Shown here: piece by piece, positions 3,465 to 55,284 of the stretch
How positions within the stretch are numbered: the stretch's first letter is position 1
Layout: the number at the start of each line of letters is the position of its first letter
Notes under the pieces: model-generated
Seen by the model: the letters and a program-made list of their open reading frames with translations, nothing else
What the model was told of the DNA's origin: nothing
The model's database searches: none
Assembly (NCBI GenBank): GCA_024231215.1
Contig: JAAEQR010000142.1
Span: 228,593 to 292,592, forward strand
Direction of reading: 5' to 3'
DNA length: 64,000 nucleotides
Origin: PVC group bacterium
GTDB taxonomy: Bacteria > Omnitrophota > Gorgyraeia > B26-G9
Position numbers and translations under genes: made by a program

Positions 3465-5132
3465 CTATTTCAATACCGCCTGAATTTCAAAACGCATGAC
3501 CGCTGATGCTCCTCTTACTTCCCTAAAAGAACGGATTAATTCAATCCTTGAAAAATCCTTAGCAAAAACCATATCATTTTTTAAACTACTTATAAGGCCG
3601 CTTGTTAATGACAGCATCTGCTCACTATGTTCTGCATAAGCCACCCCATTAATATTCAAAACCTGACTTACTTCATCTCTACGCAAATTAGTATCAACCA
3701 AACGCATAAATTCATCAGACATTCTCTTTGTTCCAATGTCTTTTGTTGCTGTATATATTCGGGTTAACCAAATATCCTGCGGTAAATTCGCACTAATTTC
3801 CTGAAGTTTTTCACTCCAACTTACTCTCCGTTTCAAAAGCGCACGAATACCTTCCATTTGATTATCAAGAATTTGCCTTGCCTCTTTCAACTTATCTATT
3901 TCTTCCAGAACAAGGGTCAAATCCCCATATTTCTCTTCTAACCTTATCTTATTTGTCTCTTTTATTTTTAATTGCGTAAACAAACCAATCCATAATGCTA
4001 TCAGCACTGTTAAAATCCCCGCACCGGCATAGATGAATTTTTTATGGGCAACAAGCTTCTCCCATATTTTGTTTCTTCTTACCGCTGCTTTATCTGAGGA
4101 GAGATTTATGCTAAAAGAACGATAACAAGCCAATCCTGCACATAATGCAAGCATCAAAGAGTTGTCCTTCAATTGCTTTTTTTTAAATTCAGTAGGCTCA
4201 TATATTAATTTAGCAATCGGATTCCACACAGTCACCTTTAAACCGAGAACCCCTTGCAAATATTTTTCCAGCCCTTTAAACATTGCAACTCTACCACTCA
4301 AAAAAAGCTCTTCTACCGTATCCCGCCCTTGGGTTTCATAATACTCTATAGCTCTTCTAATTTGATTGGACAAAGCATTGAGGATGAATAAACATAACTC
4401 ATATATATCATCACTCCCGTTTAACCCTTTAAGATGGCTAAGATTATTAAAATCAAGATCTAAATTTTTAGGCAAAGCATCAATCAGATTACTCCATGCA
4501 ACAAATCCGTCTTTTGTTAAACCAACAACCTTACCCTTAATAATATCAATGTTCGTAACTTCCATCCCGACATTAATCAAGGCAATAGTCTTATCATTGG
4601 AAACATCCGGTCCGTTTACATAAAAGCAATTCAAAAGGCTAAAAGTATCAACTTCAATCAGGCCGCAAGTATATCCGGTCGATGTAATCAAACTCGCATA
4701 GTTTTCGATCAAGTCTTTTTTTGCTGCAACAAGAATAACACGTGTCTTTGTTTCTGCTATTTTTTTATCTAAAACAGAGTAATAATCAAAAACAATATCC
4801 TCCATCTTATAGTGAACCTGGCGTTCCACTTCAAATTTCAATGCTTTTCTGATCTCAGAATCACCCATTTGCGGCCAATGGATATCACGCACAACAACAG
4901 ATTCTCCTGAAACCGAGATATTGATTTTGCATTTTTTCTTTTTTAACGGCAGCCGGCTCATCACTTCTTTGATCGCATTAATAATTCCATCCCGACCATC
5001 TCTGAAGTTAACCTCTACCATCTCAAAACCAAGCAGCTTATTTTCTTTTTCATTAGAAGCGATATAAAGGGCCTTTACCAATCCATCCCCTATCTCTACT
5101 CCCACAGCTTCTTGATATCTCTTAAAAAACAT
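3465..5132 (-). CDS. pilMN: Fused PilM (actin-like ATPase) and PilN (TM plus coiled coil) pilus assembly protein
   Basis: 555 aa. The N-terminal ~350 aa show a PilM/FtsA-like actin fold. A single TM (AGAGILTVLIALWIGLF) and a PilN-like coiled-coil periplasmic domain follow. Confidence 0.75.
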   Translation of the reverse strand: MFFKRYQEAVGVEIGDGLVKALYIASNEKENKLLGFEMVEVNFRDGRDGIINAIKEVMSRLPLKKKKCKINISVSGESVVVRDIHWPQMGDSEIRKALKFEVERQVHYKMEDIVFDYYSVLDKKIAETKTRVILVAAKKDLIENYASLITSTGYTCGLIEVDTFSLLNCFYVNGPDVSNDKTIALINVGMEVTNIDIIKGKVVGLTKDGFVAWSNLIDALPKNLDLDFNNLSHLKGLNGSDDIYELCLFILNALSNQIRRAIEYYETQGRDTVEELFLSGRVAMFKGLEKYLQGVLGLKVTVWNPIAKLIYEPTEFKKKQLKDNSLMLALCAGLACYRSFSINLSSDKAAVRRNKIWEKLVAHKKFIYAGAGILTVLIALWIGLFTQLKIKETNKIRLEEKYGDLTLVLEEIDKLKEARQILDNQMEGIRALLKRRVSWSEKLQEISANLPQDIWLTRIYTATKDIGTKRMSDEFMRLVDTNLRRDEVSQVLNINGVAYAEHSEQMLSLTSGLISSLKNDMVFAKDFSRIELIRSFREVRGASAVMRFEIQAVLK

Positions 5133-8210: not shown

Positions 8211-9569
8211 CTATAGTCCGTAACGTTTAATCTTATAGTCTAAGTTCCGGCGAGTCATTTTAAGCTTCTGAGCAACCAAGTTTTTATTGCCGCTTGTTTC
8301 GACCAGAGTTTTAGCAATCAACTCTTTCTCAAACTGCTCCACCTTATCCTTCAAAGACTCCTCAGATGCCAGTATATTGTTCGCTTCCGGCGACTGAGCA
8401 AAATCAGAAATACGCTGCGGCAGATCTGTAGCAGCAATAATGTCCTGCTCTCCTAAGGTAACTGCGCTTTCTACTGCATTTTCAAGCTCCCGCACATTAC
8501 CGGGCCAATGATAAGAAAGCATAACATCCATAGCTTCTTCAGAAAATCTTTTAACAGGCTTGCCTGGCATTTGATATTTTTTTAAAAAATGGGGTAAAAG
8601 AAGCGAAATATCTTCTTTTCTTTGCTGTAAAGAAGGTAGATATACAGAAATTACACTAATGCGATAGAAAAGATCTTTTCTAAAGTTACCCCTTTTGACT
8701 TCCTCTTCTAAGTTCCTATTTGTAGCCGCAACAATTCGCACGTCAACTTTAATGTTTTTAGTTGCACCAACCGATCGAATTTCTTTCTCCTGCAATGCCC
8801 TTAATAATTTTGCCTGCATAGCCGGAGATGTCTCTCCTATCTCATCTAAGAATAACGTCCCCCCCACGGCAACCTCAAACAACCCCTGTTTTGTAGATAT
8901 CGCACCGGTAAAAGATCCTTTTACATGTCCAAAAAGTTCGCTCTCTAAAAGATCATCCGGAAGTGCTCCGCAATCTATAGAAACAAACGGTTTTCCCGCC
9001 CTTAGACTATTGTAATGCATTGCTTTGGCAATCAGCTCTTTTCCCGTACCACTTTCCCCGTTAATTAATACTGTAGTATTGGTCTTTGCAACTTTATCAA
9101 CCATATCAAATACTTTTTGCATGGGCTTGCTTTTTCCAATTATATTTGCAAAGCGATAGCGTTCCTTTAATTTTTTCTGTGTTGATTTATCTTCGGAAAA
9201 TATTCTTTTTTGACTAAAAGCCTTCTTTATTACTAACTTTATATCCTGCAGCTTAAACGGCTTGGTTAAATAATCATGTGCTCCATAACGCAAAGATTTT
9301 ACCGCTGTTTCCACAGATGCATAAGCCGTAATAATTAAAACAATAATCTCTGGATTATGCGTTTTTACCTGCCGAAGAAGTTCAAGCCCGCTCACCTCTC
9401 CCATCCGGACATCTGTAATCACCATATCAAATGCCTCTTTACGAAAAAGTTCAAGCCCCTTTTCCGCTGAGACAGCACATTTGACAGAATAGCCTTCATT
9501 TTCTAAAACAACACTAAGCCATTCCAAAAGATCTTTTTCATCATCAACTAAAAGAATACGTCCACTCAT
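8211..9569 (-). CDS. pilR: Sigma54-dependent response regulator PilR (REC-AAA+-HTH)
   Basis: REC domain, sigma54-interaction AAA+ domain (GESGTGKE, GAFTGA-like loop), C-terminal Fis-type HTH. Confidence 0.9.
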   Translation of the reverse strand: MSGRILLVDDEKDLLEWLSVVLENEGYSVKCAVSAEKGLELFRKEAFDMVITDVRMGEVSGLELLRQVKTHNPEIIVLIITAYASVETAVKSLRYGAHDYLTKPFKLQDIKLVIKKAFSQKRIFSEDKSTQKKLKERYRFANIIGKSKPMQKVFDMVDKVAKTNTTVLINGESGTGKELIAKAMHYNSLRAGKPFVSIDCGALPDDLLESELFGHVKGSFTGAISTKQGLFEVAVGGTLFLDEIGETSPAMQAKLLRALQEKEIRSVGATKNIKVDVRIVAATNRNLEEEVKRGNFRKDLFYRISVISVYLPSLQQRKEDISLLLPHFLKKYQMPGKPVKRFSEEAMDVMLSYHWPGNVRELENAVESAVTLGEQDIIAATDLPQRISDFAQSPEANNILASEESLKDKVEQFEKELIAKTLVETSGNKNLVAQKLKMTRRNLDYKIKRYGL

Positions 9570-9585
9570 ATCTTAACTTTCTTTT

Positions 9586-10833
9586 TTAATTATTAATAGG
9601 GAGAGTTACTTTAAACGTCGCCCCCTTCCCTAATACACTAACTACATCAATCGTTCCTTTATGTTCTTTTATTATACTATAAACAATTGACAACCCCAAC
9701 CCCACACCTTTTTCCTTTCCGCTGGAAAAAGGTTCAAATAGATTATTTAAAAGTTCTTTATCTATCCCTACACCATTGTCGCCAATTTCTATTTCTACAA
9801 AGCTTTTTTTCTCATCCATGCTTTGCCTAATCGTAATTTTTCCTTTTTCTCCAACTGCTTCTACCGCATTGATCAATAGATTGAAAAACACCTGCTTAAT
9901 ATGTTCTCCGTCACAACTAACTTTTATTCCTTTAAGACTTTTCGCCTTTTCAATCACGACGCCAGGCTTAAAATCCTTACTATTCTGAACCAGCATCAAA
10001 ACCTCATCCATAAGTTCATCAGTAGAAACAGATTCCAATCGTAATTTTCTAGGCTTAACATATTCCAGCAAACCATTAATAATATTATTTAATCTTGCCG
10101 TTTCCTTTATAATAAGATTGAACAGTTTTTGGCTATTATCATCTAACGTGATCATATCATTTAACGCCTCCACACATCCGGATATTGATGCCAAAGGATT
10201 GCGTATTTCATGCGCCGTGCTTGCCGCTAGTTTGCCTATCGCCGAAAGCCTGTCTTCACGCCGCAACTTTTCCTCTAAAGACATTACGACTTTATCACGT
10301 TTTTTTACCTGCGCAGCAATATACGCGCTTAAAAATCCGATAATACAAAAAACCGTAACCCGTAGATATAGTAAAGAAAAAACATATGTGCTTTCCCTCG
10401 GAAAAATTGAGATAATATTAGACGGCAATGGAATAATCGCGTAATATTCCAAGCTCACAACTGCAGAGTACAAAATACTGCCTAACAATGCAATTATTAC
10501 AGCTGCGCGAGGAGAAATAAGAATACTTGCGGCAATAGAAGAAAGTGGGTACAAAATACCTAATACCGAGTCAATCCCTCCGGTATAATGAATAAGCAAT
10601 GTTTCAAGAGTGAGATCGATTATGATTTGCGCATAAAGAAATCCTACAGTGGTAGAGATTCGGCTTAAGAGAAGCAATGAATATACTATCGTTAATAAAT
10701 AGATACTCGCTACAAAAAGATATACCGGAGTTCGGGCAAGTCCAAACAAAGCAGTATTGACAACTAGTATTACCGTGGCAATACAAAAACGAAAAATGAT
10801 AATTTTATATAACTCAGCTTTATTGTTTAACAT
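9586..10833 (-). CDS. pilS: Sensor histidine kinase PilS (polytopic membrane domain, HisKA, HATPase)
   Basis: About 6 N-terminal TM helices, H-box (STAHEIRNPL), HATPase_c. Sits directly upstream of pilR. Confidence 0.8.
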   Translation of the reverse strand: MLNNKAELYKIIIFRFCIATVILVVNTALFGLARTPVYLFVASIYLLTIVYSLLLLSRISTTVGFLYAQIIIDLTLETLLIHYTGGIDSVLGILYPLSSIAASILISPRAAVIIALLGSILYSAVVSLEYYAIIPLPSNIISIFPRESTYVFSLLYLRVTVFCIIGFLSAYIAAQVKKRDKVVMSLEEKLRREDRLSAIGKLAASTAHEIRNPLASISGCVEALNDMITLDDNSQKLFNLIIKETARLNNIINGLLEYVKPRKLRLESVSTDELMDEVLMLVQNSKDFKPGVVIEKAKSLKGIKVSCDGEHIKQVFFNLLINAVEAVGEKGKITIRQSMDEKKSFVEIEIGDNGVGIDKELLNNLFEPFSSGKEKGVGLGLSIVYSIIKEHKGTIDVVSVLGKGATFKVTLPINN

Positions 10834-11688: not shown

Positions 11689-14427
11689 TTAAAAACTAAT
11701 TTGATTGAAAAAATCAATACTTACTTCTTGCCATAAAGACTCTGAACCTCCGAAGAAAACATCCGAAGGAGAGCGTGTAGCCGTCTTAAATCTTCGATCA
11801 TAGGACAAGTAAACTTTAGACGGAGATTTTAGAGCAAAATAACTTGTCCAGCTTCCGCCGACCTTTCTACCCCGGCTGCTCTGCCCTAAACTCGTCGATT
11901 TATACGATGAACTCCATTCATAATCTACAAAATCATATTTTGGAGCTGTGAATTCTCCGTTTTTATCCAAAATAAAAAATGCACCGGATAAAATTTTATC
12001 GCGGTCAACCGTCTTCTTATTTGCTGAATCCCAGTAACTCCAGTTCTCTAATGTTTCTCCCTTAGTTCCACGATTGCAGGCAAGAACCGTATTGTATTTA
12101 TGATGTTCATACACCCGGTTAGGCATCATACCATAAGTATAATTCTCTCCACTTGCCGGCCAGCTGAATGTAGCTGTCTTTGTACCGCTCGGATCGTGAT
12201 GCCAAAATAGACGCTTATAAGTATCGTCTTTACTAACAATTCCATTTTTAATATTTACTTCATTAGCATCTGATATAGATGGATAATAATCTTCCCATTG
12301 ATAATTTAGTCGCCAATGTTCAACCCAAAACCCGCCTCCTTTGTTTGGATCAGATTCTGCATAAATTCCGCTTGCCGCATCTTTCTTAACATACATATAA
12401 GGATAATCACGATAATGCGAAGTAGCCGGGCTTACCTGAGGATCATTGAAATCATCAGATAAGGTATATACCCTTTTCTTACTAACAATCGCGCTGGTCA
12501 CCCAGTCTGCTGTATTGTAATTTCCTTTCAGGTAAATATTTTCTTCTCCCAAAACCGTAAATCCATAATTTGCCATCTTACGCGGAAGTTTTTTCGCGTT
12601 TGCCAAACGTAAAGGAACTTTCGTATAAAGGATTCCGTTGTCCGGATAATTCCCGGCTTTTTGCATTTCATCTACATCTATTTCAAGAATCACATTCCAC
12701 TTATTCGTTCTTGTGTTAATAAATTCAACTTTTTTGGCTACATTATATGTATGTCCGTTATTTAAATCTGTTACTGCATCATCAATGCTTTTTTCAAGGA
12801 TATTCTGCCATTCGTTGTAGTCATTAAATTTACCGTCAAAATCTGTATGCAAATCAACATATAATCCGCCGCGTTCTGCCAACTTTGCATAGGCAGTATC
12901 AAATTCAGGCGGAGTCAAATATTCACCACCGGTATTACAATCCCGCACAATACCATCTAAACCAGCAGAATTCTTTAAAAAATCTTCCCATGCTGTCGGC
13001 TGTTTTTTTGTTTCTAAATGTTTTACCGGGATAGTTCCTCCACCCGCACGTTCATCTCCATATGTCCCGTCAAATACTACTTCAGGATTAAAAAAATCCG
13101 GCCAATCAGAATGACTCCCACGCGCTTTCCAATAATCAGGACTGCGAAACATCTCCCAATACGTTTTAGCATTCGGATGTTTTCCTAATTTAGATTTATC
13201 AACCCAAACCACCTTGCCTGATTCTATATCCCACCATGTATCTTTTACATCAACTTTCTTATTTCCTTTATCATATGTCCAGAAAGACACCGGAGTCTCG
13301 CTTGAGGCATCACCACTGCCATAAGCATCTCCTTTATACTTCTGCCACATCCAGGTCTCATCTATTTCTGCGGGAAGCTCATCCCATTTTCCGGAAATTA
13401 TTTCACCGGTATCTTCATCTATCCCCTCATAAGGCTGTAACCACAGATTGTATTTATTTAAAGGCTTACCACTATCATTCACCACCCCATAATAAGAAGA
13501 TCCTGATGGAATCTCATTCCAGGGCAGCCTATCCCCGCTAAAAGCCCATTCTGTAGAACGATACGCCTCTCCCGGAAAGTAAGCAGCAAAGTCCCTAGCT
13601 TGAGATCTCCAATTCCAATGCCGGGTGCCATATTTATCCCAAGAATAATATCCCCATGGACCCGGATCATCCTTACCATCTCTTCTAAAAACATCACCCG
13701 GGTCATCTAATCTCATGATCGGCGCTTTTCCGTCCATAGTCCCATCGTAACGATCAGCATAATAAGGCGCCGGATAGCGATCATAGCACTGGTAATAAAT
13801 AGTCCCTTCATCTCCTGTACTTAACTCACTGATATTTTCCAAGGCAACATGTGAATCTATCTTGATATTCCCGTTGGTATGAATTCCTCCCCCATTAAGC
13901 CTGGGATGACTTCCTACCGAATTATTAAGATCAATACTATATGGACTATAGAAAAAGAAATCATAAATACCCCTCCGACTCAAGGTACAGGTTACCGCAC
14001 GTTGTTCATTCCCATCCATCCCCATGGCTACAACCACAGTCTTGTCTTCATCAATCTGATCCTGATAAGCCTTGACCATAAAGGTTCCGTCATCAGATAT
14101 ATAAAACCCGCCCCCGTCAAAAGAACAATCCGTTCTAAGCTTCTGATGGTAACCGGAATCTGAAGAATCTACCGGCAACAATGTATCTCTATCATCATTC
14201 CATTTATGGGTATACCACTGAGATGCAAACTCCTGAGATTCATAGGTAGCATAAGCAAGTCCCATCTCTGCGAAACTAAGCGCTTTCTTCCCTTCCACTT
14301 CTTTAGTAACACTCTTACGCTCACTAATCACCAGCATAAATAAAGAGGCCGACACAACAATAAGAACAAACATTACAATGTAGGTTGAAATTAGGATAGT
14401 TCCCTTTTTATTTAGTAGTAGTCTCAT
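11689..14427 (-). CDS. Large PilX_N-domain protein, putative pilus tip-associated protein (PilY1/PilX-like)
   Basis: 912 aa. The N-terminus (KKGTILISTYIVMFVLIVVSASLFMLVISERKS...ALSFAEMGLAYA) resembles the PilX N-terminal pseudopilin-like domain. Trp/Tyr/Asp/Gly-rich, non-repetitive periplasmic region. Sits downstream of two minor pilins. Confidence 0.5.
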   Translation of the reverse strand: MRLLLNKKGTILISTYIVMFVLIVVSASLFMLVISERKSVTKEVEGKKALSFAEMGLAYATYESQEFASQWYTHKWNDDRDTLLPVDSSDSGYHQKLRTDCSFDGGGFYISDDGTFMVKAYQDQIDEDKTVVVAMGMDGNEQRAVTCTLSRRGIYDFFFYSPYSIDLNNSVGSHPRLNGGGIHTNGNIKIDSHVALENISELSTGDEGTIYYQCYDRYPAPYYADRYDGTMDGKAPIMRLDDPGDVFRRDGKDDPGPWGYYSWDKYGTRHWNWRSQARDFAAYFPGEAYRSTEWAFSGDRLPWNEIPSGSSYYGVVNDSGKPLNKYNLWLQPYEGIDEDTGEIISGKWDELPAEIDETWMWQKYKGDAYGSGDASSETPVSFWTYDKGNKKVDVKDTWWDIESGKVVWVDKSKLGKHPNAKTYWEMFRSPDYWKARGSHSDWPDFFNPEVVFDGTYGDERAGGGTIPVKHLETKKQPTAWEDFLKNSAGLDGIVRDCNTGGEYLTPPEFDTAYAKLAERGGLYVDLHTDFDGKFNDYNEWQNILEKSIDDAVTDLNNGHTYNVAKKVEFINTRTNKWNVILEIDVDEMQKAGNYPDNGILYTKVPLRLANAKKLPRKMANYGFTVLGEENIYLKGNYNTADWVTSAIVSKKRVYTLSDDFNDPQVSPATSHYRDYPYMYVKKDAASGIYAESDPNKGGGFWVEHWRLNYQWEDYYPSISDANEVNIKNGIVSKDDTYKRLFWHHDPSGTKTATFSWPASGENYTYGMMPNRVYEHHKYNTVLACNRGTKGETLENWSYWDSANKKTVDRDKILSGAFFILDKNGEFTAPKYDFVDYEWSSSYKSTSLGQSSRGRKVGGSWTSYFALKSPSKVYLSYDRRFKTATRSPSDVFFGGSESLWQEVSIDFFNQISF

Positions 14428-14439
14428 TGTCCCCTCCTT

Positions 14440-15084
14440 TTAATTGCGCCAGTACACCCTATTATTCAAGGTTATATTCAATGGATCACTCAAACATCGC
14501 CCTCTGAGTGTATCCTTTTCCGTCTTAATTTCAATCTCTACAAGTTCAATTAAAGAATCCACAACATACCCTTTTGATCCTGCATCATATTTATATCCTG
14601 TCACTTTAAAATCAGCTACATCTTCGGATGTTATAACCTGATCAATCAAAGTATTACTATCGTCCCAAACCCTGCGTAATATCTGGTTTGAGCTATCATC
14701 CCAACAATACTCAATAGACCAATCTATATTAGCTTCAGCTCCCCATTCAATCCGCCCATACGCATCCAAGCCCACCGGAACCTGAAAAACAATACTTTTA
14801 CCGGCATTAGGATTAGCTGCTGCCCCCCCCTGGTCTATAGGCATATCATATATTTCCGCATAGGTCCCCTTAGAAACTCTCATCTCCTTTACCATATCAT
14901 TAACAACTTTTCTAGCCTGTTTAGATATATCCCATTTGCCCAAGCACTGATCCGTAAAATAATTATGTGATATGAGAGCGCTGAACAATGTTCCGATCAC
15001 CACGGTATAAATTCCCAAAGACACAATCATCTCTGTTAAAGTAAAACCACTTTTATCCGTTAAATATCTTTTTTTAAATTTCAC
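14440..15084 (-). CDS. Minor pilin (prepilin-type N-terminal cleavage/methylation domain, PilW/FimT-like)
   Basis: SG|FTLTEMIVSLGIYTVVIGTLFSAL class III signal. Confidence 0.7.
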   Translation of the reverse strand: MKFKKRYLTDKSGFTLTEMIVSLGIYTVVIGTLFSALISHNYFTDQCLGKWDISKQARKVVNDMVKEMRVSKGTYAEIYDMPIDQGGAAANPNAGKSIVFQVPVGLDAYGRIEWGAEANIDWSIEYCWDDSSNQILRRVWDDSNTLIDQVITSEDVADFKVTGYKYDAGSKGYVVDSLIELVEIEIKTEKDTLRGRCLSDPLNITLNNRVYWRN

Positions 15085-15097
15085 TTAACCCATCCTC

Positions 15098-15556
15098 CTA
15101 TTTATAAATAATTGCTGTTTCCATAGAACAAGGAGAATCTATTTGCCCATTACCATTCTCATCTTCTCCTCCGTCTAATACCCCGTTCAGGTTTTGATCT
15201 TCACCAATAACCCGGGTGCGCTGCCTCCAGCATACAACAACTTTTACCTTCATTAAGAAATCCGTTTCTATTTCATTAACATACACTACACCTATATTTT
15301 CAACCCCACGATTATCTAATTCATTTAAAGTAAATGAATTGCCCGCATAAACCGAAACAATATCATCGTAAGGCACATTACGGATTCCATCTATCATACC
15401 TTCGACCGCATGCATAGCCGGGGTTATATTTTCATTTAACTCATTCATTTGAAATAAATAATTAGTAGCCTGAAACGACGCTCCAAGAGCAATTGCCATA
15501 ACTGCCACTGAAATCAAAATCTCCACAAGTGTAAATCCTTTTTTCGCTTGTAGCAT
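15098..15556 (-). CDS. Minor pilin (PilV/GspH-like pseudopilin)
   Basis: MLQAKKG|FTLVEILISVAVMAIALG. The likely start is the ATG at about 15556 with an AAAGGGGA Shine-Dalgarno. The track's GTG at 15574 would abut the leader terminator. Confidence 0.7.
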   Translation of the reverse strand: MLQAKKGFTLVEILISVAVMAIALGASFQATNYLFQMNELNENITPAMHAVEGMIDGIRNVPYDDIVSVYAGNSFTLNELDNRGVENIGVVYVNEIETDFLMKVKVVVCWRQRTRVIGEDQNLNGVLDGGEDENGNGQIDSPCSMETAIIYK

Positions 15557-15579: not shown

Positions 15580-15742
15580 AAAAAAATAGACCGAATTACC
15601 ATCCTTTACTTCGGTAACTCGGCCGCCATTAATTTCTCCCCCTCAATTCGGTATCCCGGCTATCTGAAAGGAAAAACCTTTAGACCCGTAGCTTTGCGTC
15701 CCTAATTTTCACTAGGTTTGCCATTGTCGGTAAAAGGGCATA
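15580..15742 (-). ncRNA. c-di-GMP-I (GEMM) riboswitch with intrinsic-terminator expression platform
   Basis: Minus strand reads ...ACAATGGCAAACCUAGUGAAAAUUAGGGACGCAAAGCUACGGGUCUAAAGG...GAUAGCCGGGAUACCGAAUUGAGG.... This carries the GEMM hallmarks GGCAAACC, a GAAA-tetraloop P1 hairpin, GGGACGCAAAGCUACGGGUCU and GGGAUACC. Downstream, UUACCGAAG...AAUUCGGUCUAUUUUUUU forms a terminator hairpin. Its 3' arm can alternatively pair with the aptamer's ACCGAAUU. Confidence 0.8.
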
Positions 15743-15854
15743 AAATTATATAATATTGTCTCTTTACACTCCTATTTTAAGTATACCCTATCCAGCCGGC
15801 TTTGTCAATGCTTTTACAATTGGTTTAACTGATTGACACCACTAATGTTAGTGT

Positions 15855-17060
15855 CTATCCGATAAGTTCCCCAATCTTTAAAATCGGTAAGAACATAGCG
15901 ATAACAATACCCCCTACAACAATACCCAAAAAGGCGATAATCAGAGGCTCTATTAAACTCGTAAGACCGCTTACTGCCGTATCTACCTGATCTTCATAAA
16001 AATCAGCAATTTTGCTTAACATTTTTTCTAATTCGCCGGATTCTTCTCCCACCGTAATCATCCTTGTAACCATCGGTGGAAATGCTCTGCTTTTTGCCAA
16101 TGGAGCAGAAATGCTTTCTCCTTCTCTAATTCCAACTCTCGCACTATCAACCGCTCCTTCAATAACCGTATTACCGGATGTCTTTCCCACAATTTCCAAT
16201 GCCCCTAAAATCGGTACACCGCTTCTAATAAGTGTCGAAAGGGTCCGGGAAAATCTAGCTACAGCTACTTTTCGCAGCAGCGGCCCGAAAACAGGAATAT
16301 TCAATTTCATTTGGTCAAATCTCTTTTTACCCACAGGAGTTTGAATAATTTTGCCTATAATAAAAATAAATCCAACAAGCCCGATTACACAATAAATAAA
16401 ATATGCGCGAAGCATATCCGAAAAATTAATAAGCAGCTGAGTTGGAAGCGGCAAAGTACCTCCTAATGATTCAAATATCTCTTTAAATGTAGGAATAACC
16501 TTTAATAACAAAACCAGCGTAATCCCCATCGCCATCAGAGAAACAACTGCGGGATAAACCATAGCTGACTTTACTTTTCCAGCCAATTTATTACTCTTCT
16601 CTAAGTAGCCGGCAAGCCTGTCTAAAATTTCATCAAGCATACCACTTGTCTCTCCAGCTCTCACCATATTGGTATAAAGTAATGTGAAAATCTTTGGATG
16701 TTTCTCCAAAGCCGCTGATAAACTTGCCCCTGCTTCAACATCTCCTCTTACCTCGGTAACTACCTGCCTAAAGATAGGGCTTTCCAGCTGTTCGCTTAAG
16801 ATATCCAAACTCTGCACCAATGGAATACCTGCATTAACCATTGTCGCTAACTGCCGGGAAAAGATTACTAATTCTTCAGATTTTACCGTTTTATTACGAA
16901 CCTTCTTTATAATGCTGGATTTCTTTTGCTCTGTTACTGAAATGATAATTAAATTCTTAACCCTCAACATATCCAAGGCTATTGCTCTATCTTTTGCCTC
17001 AATTAAATCATTAATCGTATTTCCTTCTTCATCCTTGGCTACATATTTAAAATATGCCAT
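15855..17060 (-). CDS. pilC: Type IV pilus platform protein PilC (GspF family)
   Basis: MAYFKYVAKDEEGN... start with two GspF repeats. The track start at 17084 adds 8 residues. Confidence 0.9.
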   Translation of the reverse strand: MAYFKYVAKDEEGNTINDLIEAKDRAIALDMLRVKNLIIISVTEQKKSSIIKKVRNKTVKSEELVIFSRQLATMVNAGIPLVQSLDILSEQLESPIFRQVVTEVRGDVEAGASLSAALEKHPKIFTLLYTNMVRAGETSGMLDEILDRLAGYLEKSNKLAGKVKSAMVYPAVVSLMAMGITLVLLLKVIPTFKEIFESLGGTLPLPTQLLINFSDMLRAYFIYCVIGLVGFIFIIGKIIQTPVGKKRFDQMKLNIPVFGPLLRKVAVARFSRTLSTLIRSGVPILGALEIVGKTSGNTVIEGAVDSARVGIREGESISAPLAKSRAFPPMVTRMITVGEESGELEKMLSKIADFYEDQVDTAVSGLTSLIEPLIIAFLGIVVGGIVIAMFLPILKIGELIG

Positions 17061-17178
17061 ACAGCCTCCTTTTTTAAGCAACAAACAGCAATAAAATATC
17101 TAAAAATCATAATTTACAAATTACCAGCTACTATTTATAACTATTATATATTATTTCTTTTTATAAAGAAATATTTTT

Positions 17179-18909
17179 TTATTCCGCAGAGGTAACTCTC
17201 AGCACTTCTTCTAAAGTCGTCTTACCCGCCAAGAAATTAATTAACCCGGCATCACGCAAGGTTACCATATTACATTCTTTTTTAGCATAACGTTTAATTT
17301 CATCGCTAGAGGAACGATTCATAATCATTTCTCTTATCGAATCATTAACAACCATGATTTCAATCATGGCAAAACGCCCTCGATATCCGGAACCGCTGCA
17401 ATAATTACAACCTTTGCCTTTATATACCGTAATATCTTCACTTTTCTTATCTAATCCTAAACGATCCAATACCGACTGCGGCACTTCATACTGTTCCTTG
17501 CATTTATCACAAATTTTACGCGCAAGCCTTTGCGCAACCACAGCAACCACACTCGAAGAGATCAAAAAAGGCTCAATCCCCATATCAATAAGCCTGGTTA
17601 CTGCACCCGGGGCGTCATTTGTATGCAGTGTACTAAGAAGCATAGCTCCGGTCAAAGCCGCTTTTATTGCGATATCACCTGTTTCAAAATCCCGGATTTC
17701 CCCAACCATTAAAACATCAGGGTTTTGCCTTAATATTGAGCGCAATCCAGAAGAAAAAGTTAAACCAATATCCGGCTTAACCTGCACCTGAGTAATCCCT
17801 TCTACTTGATATTCAACCGGATCCTCAATTGTAATAAGATTTTTATCCGGAGTATTCAACCGATTAAGCACTGAATATAATGTGGTTGATTTACCGCTAC
17901 CCGTAGGCCCGGTAACCAAGATCATTCCATACGGCCGGTTAATCGCAAAATTGAAATTGGTCAAAGCCTCCGGCAGAAACCCTAAAGCTTCAAGCCCAAT
18001 ACTTAAATTGGCCTTATCTAAAGCACGCATAACTACTTTTTCACCAAAACTTATCGGTAATACAGAAACACGAAAATCAACTTCCTTCTTCTCAAATTTA
18101 ACTTTAAACCTTCCGTCCTGAGGAATAAGACGCTGGGTAATATCCAAATTTGACATTATCTTCAAACGAGCCGCGATCGCATTTTGAATTTTTTTTGGCA
18201 AAACCGCTGCCTCATGCAAAGCTCCATCGATGCGATATCTTACACGTATATTGTGCTCATAAGGCTCAATGTGAATATCCGATGCCCTCTTAAGTAAAGA
18301 TTCTGCAATTAAAGCATCGATCATTTTAACAATCGGAGCTTCTTCACTGGAACGAATTACATCTCCGATATCTACTTGATCCTGCTGACCTACAACCTCA
18401 ATATCTTCATCCTGAATATTTTTAACCAAGTCATCCAAAGAAGCAGCTGCTTTTTGAGCTTCGGCACCTGCAGGATGATACAACCTATTGATTGCCTTTC
18501 CCACCGTACCTAAAGAGCATACAGCCGGATTCACATCATAACCGGTAAGCGCCTTTATATCATCAACTGCCAATACATTCAGGGGATCACTCATCGCCAC
18601 AGTAAGAATATTACCCACATGAGATATAGCTAAAAGATGATAATGCTGTGCAACGTGCTCAGGAATAATTTTTATAAGTTTTTCCGGAGCTTTAAACTTT
18701 TCAAGATTAATAAGTGGAATGCTTAAATAATGACAGAAACAAACAGCAATGTCTTCCTCACTTACAAACTTTTCTTCCACTAATATAGCCGCTAGTTGAC
18801 CACCTTTTTGTTGTTGAATATTCAAGGCTTTGTCAATATCGTCTTTTTCTACCAGTTTGTAGTCAAGTAATAACTCATTAAGCCGTTTTTTAATTCTGCT
18901 TCTGCGCAT
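17179..18909 (-). CDS. pilB: Type IV pilus assembly ATPase PilB/GspE family, paralog 1
   Basis: MshEN-like N-terminal domain, Walker A GPTGSGKSTTLYS, Asp/His boxes, C-terminal tetracysteine. Confidence 0.85.
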   Translation of the reverse strand: MRRSRIKKRLNELLLDYKLVEKDDIDKALNIQQQKGGQLAAILVEEKFVSEEDIAVCFCHYLSIPLINLEKFKAPEKLIKIIPEHVAQHYHLLAISHVGNILTVAMSDPLNVLAVDDIKALTGYDVNPAVCSLGTVGKAINRLYHPAGAEAQKAAASLDDLVKNIQDEDIEVVGQQDQVDIGDVIRSSEEAPIVKMIDALIAESLLKRASDIHIEPYEHNIRVRYRIDGALHEAAVLPKKIQNAIAARLKIMSNLDITQRLIPQDGRFKVKFEKKEVDFRVSVLPISFGEKVVMRALDKANLSIGLEALGFLPEALTNFNFAINRPYGMILVTGPTGSGKSTTLYSVLNRLNTPDKNLITIEDPVEYQVEGITQVQVKPDIGLTFSSGLRSILRQNPDVLMVGEIRDFETGDIAIKAALTGAMLLSTLHTNDAPGAVTRLIDMGIEPFLISSSVVAVVAQRLARKICDKCKEQYEVPQSVLDRLGLDKKSEDITVYKGKGCNYCSGSGYRGRFAMIEIMVVNDSIREMIMNRSSSDEIKRYAKKECNMVTLRDAGLINFLAGKTTLEEVLRVTSAE

Positions 18910-18923
18910 AAAAATCTTTCTTC

Positions 18924-20639
18924 TTAGTCTGCTACGGTCAACCGCGTAATCTCTTCTAAAGTAGTAAGTCCTTTTAACACTTTAATAACTCCGTTCTCCC
19001 GTAACGTAACCATCCCTTCTTCGCGTGCTTTTTGCTTAATTATTCCTTCTTGGGCTTTTTTCATAACTAAGTCCCTGATATCAGGCGTAAATGGCAAAAC
19101 CTCACAAAGTCCCAACCTCCCCCAGTAACCGGTATTCTTGCATTTATTACATCCTTTTGCCCTAAAAACTTCTTTATGTTCTTCGGCAATATGAAATTTT
19201 TTTTTGATCTCCGGCGTAATCGGATAAGGCTCTTTACAAACCTGACAAATCTTACGAATCAATCGCTGCGCACAAACCACTAAGCAGGAAGATGTAATTA
19301 AAAATGGTTCTATCCCCATATTTACCATTCTTGTAACTGCACCGGCAGCTTCGGTAGTATGCAAAGTACTTAGAACCAAATGACCGGTTAACGCTGCCTT
19401 TATCGATATATCTAACGTTGCTGTGTCTCGTATTTCACCTACCATGATTATATCCGGATCCTGTCGCAAAAAAGAACGCAAAGCTCCGGAAAAGGTAAGC
19501 CCTACATCAGGATTAACGTTTACCTGATTTACCCCTTCCATCTGATACTCAACCGGATCTTCGGCGGTAACTACATTTAATTCCGGGTCATCCACATATC
19601 GCAATACAGAATAAAGAGTTGTTGATTTTCCACTGCCGGTGGGGCCCACAACAAGGATTAGTCCATGCGGCTCCTGCGCAAGTTTCTTTAATTTCTCCAT
19701 GGGTTTAGTCTCAAAACCCAAACTATCCAGATCCAAAATAACCGCGGTTTTATCCAAAACACGCAAAGCCACTTTCTCCCCATGACTTGACGGCATTATG
19801 GAAACACGGAAATCAACTTCCCGACCATGTATTTTAATTTTAAACCGGCCATCCTGAGGTAATCTGTGTTCAGCAATATTTAAAACAGACATGACTTTAA
19901 TACGCGAAACAATTGCCTCCTGCATTGACTGCGGCGGCGCAGGAAATTCCTGCAAAATCCCGTCAAGACGATAACGTATACGCAATCTTTTTTCCTGAGG
20001 TTCTATAAGGATATCACTCGCTCTGTTTTTTATTGCTTCAGCAAGAATCATGTTTGTTACCTTTACTACCGGAGTATCTTCTAGCTGTCTAAGCAATTCT
20101 TGGGTATTATCCGTTTTGACATCAACGTCTTCAGTATCCTGAAAGACTTCTATATCCATATCCTTTACATCTTCAATTATCGACTGCATTTGATCGTTGG
20201 TTGTAGTATTATAGTAATCTTCGATAGCTTTCTTAATGTCTTTTTCCGTCGCAATAACCACCTTAAGCTGATAATTAGTTAATACTTTAAGCTCATCAAT
20301 TGCCAAGATATTAAGCGGATCGACCATCGCCACGGTTAATATCTTACCAATCTTGGAAACCGCAATCGCCTGGTATTTATTCGCAAGCTCTTTTGGAATA
20401 ATTTGTACCACATCCTGGTTTATTTTAAATTTAGAGAGATTTATAGGAGGAATGTTTAGACTTTGACTTAAGACAATAACAAGGTCTTTCTGACTAATAT
20501 ACCCCATTGTTGTCAAAACTTCACTCAGACGTCTGCCGCTTTCTTTCTGAGAAGCAATTGCTTCATCCAACTGCTCCTTAGTCAAAAAATTGGACCTTGT
20601 TAAAACTTCCAGCATTTTTTCTTTTATGCCTTGAACCAT
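18924..20639 (-). CDS. pilB: Type IV pilus assembly ATPase PilB/GspE family, paralog 2
   Basis: N-terminal T2SSE_N-like domain, Walker A VVGPTGSGKSTTLYS, C-terminal tetracysteine (CQVCKEPY...CNKCKNTGYWGR). Confidence 0.85.
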   Translation of the reverse strand: MVQGIKEKMLEVLTRSNFLTKEQLDEAIASQKESGRRLSEVLTTMGYISQKDLVIVLSQSLNIPPINLSKFKINQDVVQIIPKELANKYQAIAVSKIGKILTVAMVDPLNILAIDELKVLTNYQLKVVIATEKDIKKAIEDYYNTTTNDQMQSIIEDVKDMDIEVFQDTEDVDVKTDNTQELLRQLEDTPVVKVTNMILAEAIKNRASDILIEPQEKRLRIRYRLDGILQEFPAPPQSMQEAIVSRIKVMSVLNIAEHRLPQDGRFKIKIHGREVDFRVSIMPSSHGEKVALRVLDKTAVILDLDSLGFETKPMEKLKKLAQEPHGLILVVGPTGSGKSTTLYSVLRYVDDPELNVVTAEDPVEYQMEGVNQVNVNPDVGLTFSGALRSFLRQDPDIIMVGEIRDTATLDISIKAALTGHLVLSTLHTTEAAGAVTRMVNMGIEPFLITSSCLVVCAQRLIRKICQVCKEPYPITPEIKKKFHIAEEHKEVFRAKGCNKCKNTGYWGRLGLCEVLPFTPDIRDLVMKKAQEGIIKQKAREEGMVTLRENGVIKVLKGLTTLEEITRLTVAD

Positions 20640-51367: not shown

Positions 51368-51443
51368 GGGGTTGTAGCTCAGCTGGGAGAGTACATGACT
51401 GGCAGTCATGGGGTCGGGGGTTCGAGCCCCCCCAGCTCCACCA
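51368..51443 (+). tRNA. tRNA-Ala (anticodon GGC)
   Basis: Manual fold: acceptor GGGGTTG/CAGCTCC including the G3:U70 alanine identity pair. D-arm GCTC-AGCTGGGA-GAGT. Anticodon arm CATGA-CTGGCAG-TCATG. T-arm GGGGG-TTCGAGC-CCCCC. Encoded CCA. Confidence 0.85.
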
Positions 51444-55197: not shown

Positions 55198-55284
55198 GCC
55201 GAGGTGGCGGAATTGGCATACGCGTCGGTCTCAAACACCGATGGGGGCAACCCCATGTGGGTTCAAGTCCCACCCTCGGCACCA
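55198..55284 (+). tRNA. tRNA-Leu (anticodon CAA), class II with long variable arm
   Basis: Acceptor GCCGAGG/CCTCGGC. Anticodon arm TCGGT-CTCAAAC-ACCGA. Variable arm TGGGGGCAACCCCA. T-arm GTGGG-TTCAAGT-CCCAC. Encoded CCA. Confidence 0.85.

Follow-up and report, generated by a model that had tools for sequence, protein, structure and literature searches.

The leader described here lies on the minus strand of a 64-kb window (the whole stretch of DNA analysed, 64,000 nucleotides, positions 228,593 to 292,592 of contig JAAEQR010000142.1, assembly GCA_024231215.1, from a PVC group bacterium of the Omnitrophota lineage), where it lies between a PilC-like gene (15855-17084) and the pilin gene that opens a minor-pilin operon (ATG at 15556). 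It carries an aptamer of the class that senses c-di-GMP (cyclic dimeric GMP), followed by an intrinsic terminator, and the 5' arm and loop of this terminator copy the 3' end of the aptamer and the start of the linker. The RNA is in kind an ordinary c-di-GMP-I RNA, found in a phylum of which no representative has been cultured, and its expression platform is the unusual part. Because the aptamer 3' half recurs as the terminator 5' arm, two alternative aptamer-like folds, A (the aptamer itself) and B, share one 5' half. With moderate confidence, the leader is read as an OFF switch, a class-I c-di-GMP riboswitch in which presumed ligand binding would lead to formation of the terminator and would shut down the minor-pilin operon.

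A cmscan search of the whole window against all 4227 Rfam families gave a sole riboswitch match, at 15731..15646 on the minus strand, covering model positions 1-80 of 80. The top-scoring model is RF03167 (c-di-GMP-I-GGC; 67.7 bits against a gathering score of 59, E = 7.1e-14), and a second family of clan CL00126 also exceeds its own gathering score at this site, where it is masked by clan competition. The match is far beyond chance and the aptamer is real. The pattern GCAAAGCYRCGGGTC occurs once in the window, and neither the Rfam scan nor the pattern search found further copies of the aptamer within the 64 kb. An initial annotation of this DNA had proposed a GEMM, or c-di-GMP class-I, aptamer followed by an intrinsic terminator; the blocks that it quoted (GGCAAACC, the UAGU-GAAA-AUUA hairpin, GGGACGCAAAGCUACGGGUCU and AGCCGGGAUACCGAAUU) are present on the minus strand, with a few letters doubled at the joins, and the proposal is supported by the Rfam match and by a hairpin with a U-run. 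It had named RF01051 as the family to be expected; a clan match above the gathering score was indeed obtained, but the best model is RF03167, although the pocket nucleotide is that of an ordinary c-di-GMP-I RNA.

Fold A (15646..15731), as delimited by the Rfam match and by an alignment of 24 leaders, comprises P1, P1a, the P1b hairpin with its GAAA loop (15710-15707) and P2. The last of these has a tetraloop-receptor-like bulge, the element UCUAAA / A-GA, which resembles the consensus CUAAgg / AuGa; docking is predicted only. The 3' half of the aptamer, hereafter X (GCCGGGAUACCG, 15649..15660), provides the 3' strand of P2, the equivalent of C92 and the 3' strand of P1.

The comparative material came from an alignment search with the family of the 912-aa protein encoded downstream and from look-ups of single homologues, which together gave 36 loci; 24 distinct complete leaders were taken from these and aligned after an optional insertion had been trimmed, and the co-variation and duplex-energy tests applied to them ignore phylogenetic relatedness among the leaders. 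A match to the c-di-GMP-I clan is found at the same place in nearly every locus that extends far enough upstream, and the position of the leader, after pilC and before the first pilin, is kept in the related Omnitrophota loci. Distant homologues of the 912-aa protein, with 27-35% identity (loci L016, L023 and L026-L028), are without a riboswitch match. RNAalifold recovered the aptamer helices and the terminator; in this combined structure, 96.7% of cells pair, nine pairs are changed on both sides, and the observed score was reached by 0 of 500 shuffles, while shifting the partners by one to three columns lowers pairing to 29-45%. The initial annotation would have been refuted by a covariation analysis in which P1/P2 cannot form; here, the P1b pairs are formed in 99.3% of cells, all six have changes on both sides and the GAAA loop is invariant, and the pairs of P2 are formed in 98.9% of cells. 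All 24 leaders have the terminator, with compensatory changes at two pairs.

The insertion trimmed from the alignment is 47-116 nt long, folds as two hairpins and is found in 17 of the 24 leaders, being absent from the window and from five others. Its site is flanked by GGGRC, the 3' side of the first aptamer hairpin, and by GCAAAG, and adjoins the A47 position; examples are L003 216-262, L004 4633-4711, L007 3159-3215 and L017 702-772 and 5723-5838.

Alignment to the model places the equivalents of the pocket positions G20, A47 and C92 at 15722, 15695 and 15651, respectively. We take the 'GGC' in the name of RF03167 to stand for the nucleotides at positions 20, 47 and 92, a reading that draws in part on a comparison of consensus lines. 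The core consensus lines of the two families differ at one position (GACGCGAAg in RF03167, GACGCAAAg in RF01051), and this single core difference is the A47 position in Vc2 numbering. The window reads GACGCAAAGC against the RF03167 consensus GACGCGAAgC, with A and not G at this position, and an ordinary c-di-GMP-I pocket is therefore a better description than the GGC type. GCAAAG, which holds the A47 position, is invariant in 24/24 leaders, as is the C at the C92 position; the G20 position is G in 20/24, the window included, and A in 4/24. All three nucleotides contact the ligand in Vc2 (PMC4744006). The insertion-free leaders (the window and five others) are filed under RF03167, at 67-76 bits, and RF01051 takes the orthologues of this locus that bear the insertion, at 35-45 bits; hence, the choice of model tracks peripheral features, not the pocket. 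That the RNA is a true c-di-GMP-I-GGC variant sensing a ligand other than c-di-GMP is hardly credible: the scores of the insertion-free leaders are topped by RF03167, whose compact length and short P1 the window RNA shares, but A stands at the one diagnostic core position in the window and in all 24 leaders, where the variant consensus has G, and the insertion-bearing orthologues fall into RF01051. The window RNA looks like a class-I c-di-GMP aptamer with a G20/A47/C92-type pocket and would be expected to bind c-di-GMP. The case also illustrates an annotation pitfall, in that Rfam clan competition can put a sequence in a 'variant' family whose diagnostic nucleotide is absent.

The four related leaders with A for G at the G20 position (AUAGCAAACC or AAAGCAAACC) are located in L004 near 915-1019, L013 near 1290-1392, L030 near 665-762 and L032 near 4615-4721. 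This change is known from the cyclic AMP-GMP (c-AMP-GMP, GEMM-Ib) riboswitches, and some leader copies in the clade may sense a different cyclic dinucleotide.

Upstream of the aptamer, a sigma-70-like promoter is predicted at 15808..15780 on the minus strand (TTGACA at 15808-15803, a 17-nt spacer and TATACT at 15785-15780; 11/12 matches), and the transcript would start near 15773; the pair TTGACA...TATACT/TATAAT is also visible upstream of related leaders. Directly 5' of the aptamer lies a nearly invariant pyrimidine tract, Py1 (CCCUUUU, 15732..15738), and the 3' end of the aptamer is followed by a purine-rich linker, Pu1 (UUGAGGGGGAGAA, 15634..15646). In constrained folds, Py1 pairs with Pu1 in fold A, which lengthens P1, and with the terminator loop in fold B.

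The hairpin and the U-run identify 15624..15580 as an intrinsic (rho-independent) terminator, at which termination is predicted. The stem is formed by GGCCGAGUUACC (15624..15613) and GGUAAUUCGGUC (15600..15589), which enclose a 12-nt loop (15612-15601), and is followed by the U-run UAUUUUUUU (15588..15580); the hairpin has 12 pairs and a free energy of about -17.8 kcal/mol, and a simple terminator scan missed it because the loop is longer than 8 nt. The terminator begins 22 nt past the aptamer, 24 nt separate the end of the U-run from the pilin ATG, and the end of the aptamer lies about 75 nt before the Shine-Dalgarno sequence of the pilin gene. The hairpin and U-run of the initial annotation are thus real, but in a different register, with 12 bp as against the six pairs ACCGAA/UUCGGU that it gave; the 12-bp register is the co-varying one in the relatives (C-G to U-A at columns 131/153), and the 6-bp register is a weaker alternative to it.

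The 5' part of the terminator contains X' (15613..15629), a near-copy of the aptamer 3' half, composed of the G of an AUG at 15627 and then GCGGCCGAGUUACC, and preceded by AU at 15629-15628. Both segments, X (GCCGGGUUACCGAA-AUAAAAAGG) and X' (GCCGAGCUACCGAA-AUAAAAGG), are conserved in 24/24 leaders; in most of them, the aptamer ends with AGAC-GCCGGGUUACCGAA-AUAAAAAGG and the terminator has UGAU-AGCCGAGCUACCGAA-AUAAAAGG. X' is more conserved than the 3' arm of the terminator, which tolerates mismatches, and conservation reaches beyond the terminator stem to an invariant AU before the arm and an invariant G after the final CC. The receptor element of X' ('AuGa') is closer than that of X to the 3' half of the RF01051 consensus, cuAuGacAGCcggGcUgCCgaa.

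Since X' copies X, it can replace X and build the aptamer-like fold B, in which the terminator 5' arm and loop pair with the aptamer 5' half and the linker forms a helix with the distal part of P2. This alternative pairing has support from conservation and co-variation. In its P2' helix, 92% of cells pair, and its long P1' pairs the CCCUUUU tract with the terminator loop and with the start of the 3' arm. Co-evolution was assessed by comparing duplex energies within each leader with those between different leaders, using 1000 permutations. The helix between the linker and the P2 tip (Py2:Pu1) is stronger with its own partner, a result matched by 0/1000 permutations, and the helix between Py1 and the terminator loop is likewise better with its own partner (14/1000), the control pairing being matched by 820/1000; explicit compensatory examples exist. 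The extended P1 (Py1:Pu1) showed no within-leader advantage (414/1000 permutations), though it formed in every constrained fold; it is compatible with the data, without co-variation support.

The mutually exclusive pairing proposed in the initial annotation was another one, in which the aptamer 3' end ACCGAAUU would pair with the terminator 3' arm AAUUCGGU as an antiterminator when the ligand is absent. The two segments are complementary, with eight perfect pairs in the window, and this pairing arises because X and the terminator 5' arm are near-copies, so that X is able to pair with the 3' arm in general; in most relatives, however, the complementarity shrinks to about 5 bp (ACCGA/UCGGU). The terminator 5' arm lies between both segments, is closer and pairs better (12 bp), and so is the expected winner, and a duplex that ends at the U-run should promote release rather than hinder it, as in oligonucleotide-induced termination. 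As an account of the platform, this pairing is very improbable.

The energies of the competing folds depend on the length of the transcript. For each of the 24 full-length leaders, with or without fold A enforced, the minimum-energy fold contains the terminator, and fold A with the terminator is more stable than fold B by 3-21 kcal/mol; switching must therefore be kinetic. Thermodynamic switching was discarded as an explanation, no equilibrium model yielding regulation. When the transcript is cut just before the 3' arm, fold B is more stable than ligand-free fold A in 18/24 leaders, the difference (B minus A) at this decision point being -2.7 kcal/mol on average and -8.9 kcal/mol in the window. 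In a series of increasing lengths of the window RNA, B-type pairs are in the minimum-energy fold at 129-135 and 144-150 nt, and the terminator is there from 153 nt. To refold into the terminator, fold A would have to cross an estimated barrier of 2.6-3.8 kcal/mol, and fold B one of 5-13 kcal/mol.

The proposed OFF mechanism would run as follows. A sigma-70-like promoter of the leader's own, immediately after pilC, would drive transcription, and fold A would form first, with P1 lengthened by pairing of Py1 with the purine linker. Without ligand, the linker would pair with the P2 tip, X would be looped out and X' would capture the aptamer 5' half, giving fold B, the presumed antiterminator; fold B would hide the 5' arm and loop of the terminator as well as the beginning of its 3' arm, and would delay the terminator long enough for RNA polymerase to read through into the pilin genes. 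Fold A keeps all ligand-binding features and is compatible with the terminator, so that ligand capture by A would free X' for the terminator: early c-di-GMP would lock fold A, X' would remain single-stranded and zip up with the 3' arm, and transcription would stop; from locked A, the terminator would face a nucleation barrier only. High c-di-GMP would thus turn the minor-pilin operon OFF. We prefer this reading as the most economical, as it gives a role to every conserved element and the energy order is that expected of an OFF switch.

The initial annotation was right that ON or OFF action is not readable from the sequence, and several points weigh against the OFF reading. One is the presence of the terminator in the minimum-energy fold of every full-length leader, described above, and another is that the nearest-neighbour model never gives complete fold A without ligand in the window. 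The pairs of P2' are compatible, but with two strands that hardly vary there is next to no co-variation in them. The biological prior favours the reverse: c-di-GMP usually promotes such pili, and the neighbouring PilB-like ATPases, with their MshE-type c-di-GMP-binding motif, suggest the same here. Fold B also has the equivalents of G20, A47 and C92, a P1 and a canonical-looking 11-nt GAAA receptor, and could itself bind c-di-GMP. Finally, the combination of fold B and terminator reproduces exactly the usual GEMM arrangement, where the ligand prevents termination (PMC1950547).

The opposite reading is an ON switch whose sensor is fold B, built from the aptamer 5' half and X'; c-di-GMP would lock B and block the terminator, the pilin operon would be on, and X would serve to occupy the 5' half without ligand so that the terminator forms efficiently. 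Such a design has many parallels among GEMM RNAs, where the terminator, on its 5' side, overlaps the 3' side of P2 and the ligand is predicted to raise expression (PMC1950547). The closer fit of the 'AuGa' element of X' to the RF01051 consensus speaks for it as well, as do the invariant AU before the arm, which would be expected if B docks the GAAA loop, and the MshE-type motif in both ATPases, which suggests that c-di-GMP favours the pilus. However, an ON switch gives no reason for fold A, at 67.7 bits, to keep every ligand-binding feature, and ligand captured by A would cause termination. Moreover, ligand-free B is already favoured at the decision point and is separated from the terminator by a barrier of 5-13 kcal/mol, which makes read-through the default without ligand, and the time for the ligand to bind B would be about 10-20 nt of transcription, compared with about 75 nt for A. 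We regard the ON reading as a serious alternative, though a less probable one than the OFF reading.

Perhaps both folds are sensors. In such a strand-swap riboswitch, which we put forward tentatively and as a possibility of the lesser sort, one 5' half would be completed by either of two 3' halves, giving two mutually exclusive c-di-GMP aptamers, of which the first would leave the terminator free and the second would be built with the 5' arm of the terminator itself. Whichever 3' half holds the core when the ligand arrives would decide the outcome, and the same ligand could lock an OFF or an ON state, with a time-gated or non-monotonic response; in the Omnitrophota clade, this design would have been multiplied ahead of a number of pilin cassettes, in some cases with a cGAMP-type (A20) pocket.

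Another mechanism to be weighed against the OFF reading is coupling to a leader peptide. A mini-ORF of seven codons and a stop (AUG GCG GCC GAG UUA CCG AAG UAA, MAAELPK; 15606..15629, minus strand) overlaps the terminator 5' arm and loop; the purine linker would act as its Shine-Dalgarno sequence, a ribosome on it would block the terminator, and c-di-GMP would hide the Shine-Dalgarno sequence in the extended P1, so that translation would fail and termination would follow. The AUG is present in 24/24 leaders, with a purine tract 6-9 nt upstream in most, the peptide follows the pattern M-x-A-E/G-L-P-x-stop with the stop inside the terminator loop in 19/24, and the Leu codon shows synonymous changes only (CUA, UUA, CUG). 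This reading is nevertheless downgraded to improbable because the RF01051 consensus contains 'AuGacAGCc': the AUG and the next bases lie within the c-di-GMP-I consensus 'cuAuGacAGCc', so RNA structure explains them. The third positions of GCC, GAG and CCG are invariant, the leaders of L018 and L033 have lost the Shine-Dalgarno-like GG yet keep the Py1 pairing, and the purine tract is paired in fold A and in fold B. As the spacing is fixed by structure, the in-frame stop amounts to a single coincidence of about one in three. The mini-ORF is probably a by-product of RNA constraints.

The leader precedes a minor-pilin operon of three genes or more. The first gene (15098..15556, minus strand, start MLQAKKGFTLVEIL) encodes a 152-aa prepilin-type minor pilin with the prepilin motif G-F-x-x-x-E, matched by PF07963 (N_methyl; 30.4 bits against a cut-off of 21.2, E 2.5e-7) and TIGR02532 (27 bits against 16.3), in agreement with the initial annotation, which had placed the leader before an operon opening with a minor pilin. 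The product of the second gene (14440..15084, minus strand) is pilin-like, 214 aa long, and matches N_methyl weakly, short of the Pfam cut-off (E 0.0031). The third (11689..14427, minus strand) encodes the 912-aa protein, which has an N-terminal hydrophobic segment and is conserved in Omnitrophota; its 23 homologues, with 42-100% identity, are all Candidatus Omnitrophota or metagenome records, and a protein from the MAG of a 'PVC group bacterium' is 100% identical to it. The label PilX_N given to this protein in the initial annotation is unsupported by Pfam or NCBIfam: neither database gave a family match, and PilX_N was not listed for residues 1-153 even at E <= 10.

On the minus strand, the pilus locus runs from two tandem PilB-like ATPases (17179-18909 and 18924-20639; TIGR02538) through the PilC-like protein (15855-17084; T2SSF match), the leader and the three genes of the 152-aa, 214-aa and 912-aa proteins to a 177-aa protein, a PilS-like histidine kinase with a 6TM_PilS domain and a sigma-54-dependent response regulator; the last two (8211-10833, minus strand) lie 3' of the pilin cassette and are also found in relatives, in which the whole gene order recurs. 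With scores of 40.6 and 47.1 bits, the two ATPases exceed the cut-off (38) of NF053729, the MshE-related c-di-GMP-binding motif, and c-di-GMP may act on the pilus at the protein level too.

A comparison with known systems puts the window RNA close to the c-di-GMP-I family (GEMM-I, RF01051), represented by Vc2 of Vibrio cholerae. They share the two-hairpin aptamer with a GAAA tetraloop and its receptor in the second hairpin, the GCAAAG junction, the G20, A47 and C92 equivalents and the 5' regulatory position. Unlike RF01051 and Vc2, the window RNA belongs to an Omnitrophota host, its P1 is extended by pyrimidine and purine flanks, and the 5' arm of its terminator repeats the aptamer 3' half instead of being the aptamer's own 3' strand. 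The c-di-GMP-I class has been linked to pilus and motility genes, often with an intrinsic terminator after the aptamer (PMC1950547, PMC4744006), and GEMM RNAs upstream of pilus genes, with terminators overlapping P2, were noted at the first description of the motif (PMC1950547). The c-AMP-GMP riboswitches of Geobacter have the same fold, but the window has G at 15722 where they have A; they are linked to pili and to extracellular functions, and commonly act through a terminator (PMC7266159).

Two further parallels are functional. Upstream of pilA1 in Clostridioides difficile, a c-di-GMP-II riboswitch with a terminator controls a type IV pilin as an ON switch. It resembles the window RNA in being a terminator-bearing c-di-GMP riboswitch before a type IV pilin gene, and differs in its aptamer class and fold, in controlling the major pilin and in its ON action; the c-di-GMP riboswitches of C. 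difficile are listed in PMC3649979. As in classical attenuators and OFF riboswitches, the proposed platform has four segments, of which two compatible hairpins lead to termination and one alternative pairing to read-through, and the decision would be kinetic. In contrast to classical attenuators, the antiterminator is not a 2-3 but a 1-3 pairing with segment 2 looped out, which requires segment 3 to mimic segment 2. A conserved second copy of the aptamer 3' half serving as terminator arm was not found described in the literature searched.

The leader would place RNA-level control of type IV minor pilins by c-di-GMP in Omnitrophota, uncultured nanobacteria thought to rely on pili for their lifestyle, and, together with the MshE-type motif of the ATPases at the same locus, a single machine would be subject to c-di-GMP both through RNA and through protein. 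The platform, conserved in 24 leaders, offers a compact natural test case for strand exchange deciding the outcome of a riboswitch.

In several genomes the complete leader, from aptamer through linker to terminator, is present at least twice, the second copy lying immediately ahead of the 912-aa homologue or ahead of another pilin cassette. Such copies are located at 667-824 and 5698-5890 in L017, 4483-4640 and 9493-9685 in L031, ~915-1130 and 4598-4830 in L004, ~665-880 and 4589-4860 in L030, and 181-420 and 5152-5251 in L003. A multiplication of a leader of this kind before several pilin cassettes in one clade was not found described in the literature searched. Elsewhere in the window, the Rfam scan detected two tRNA genes on the plus strand, at 51368-51440 and 55198-55281 (59.9 and 58.7 bits, respectively), the second of which has a long variable arm.

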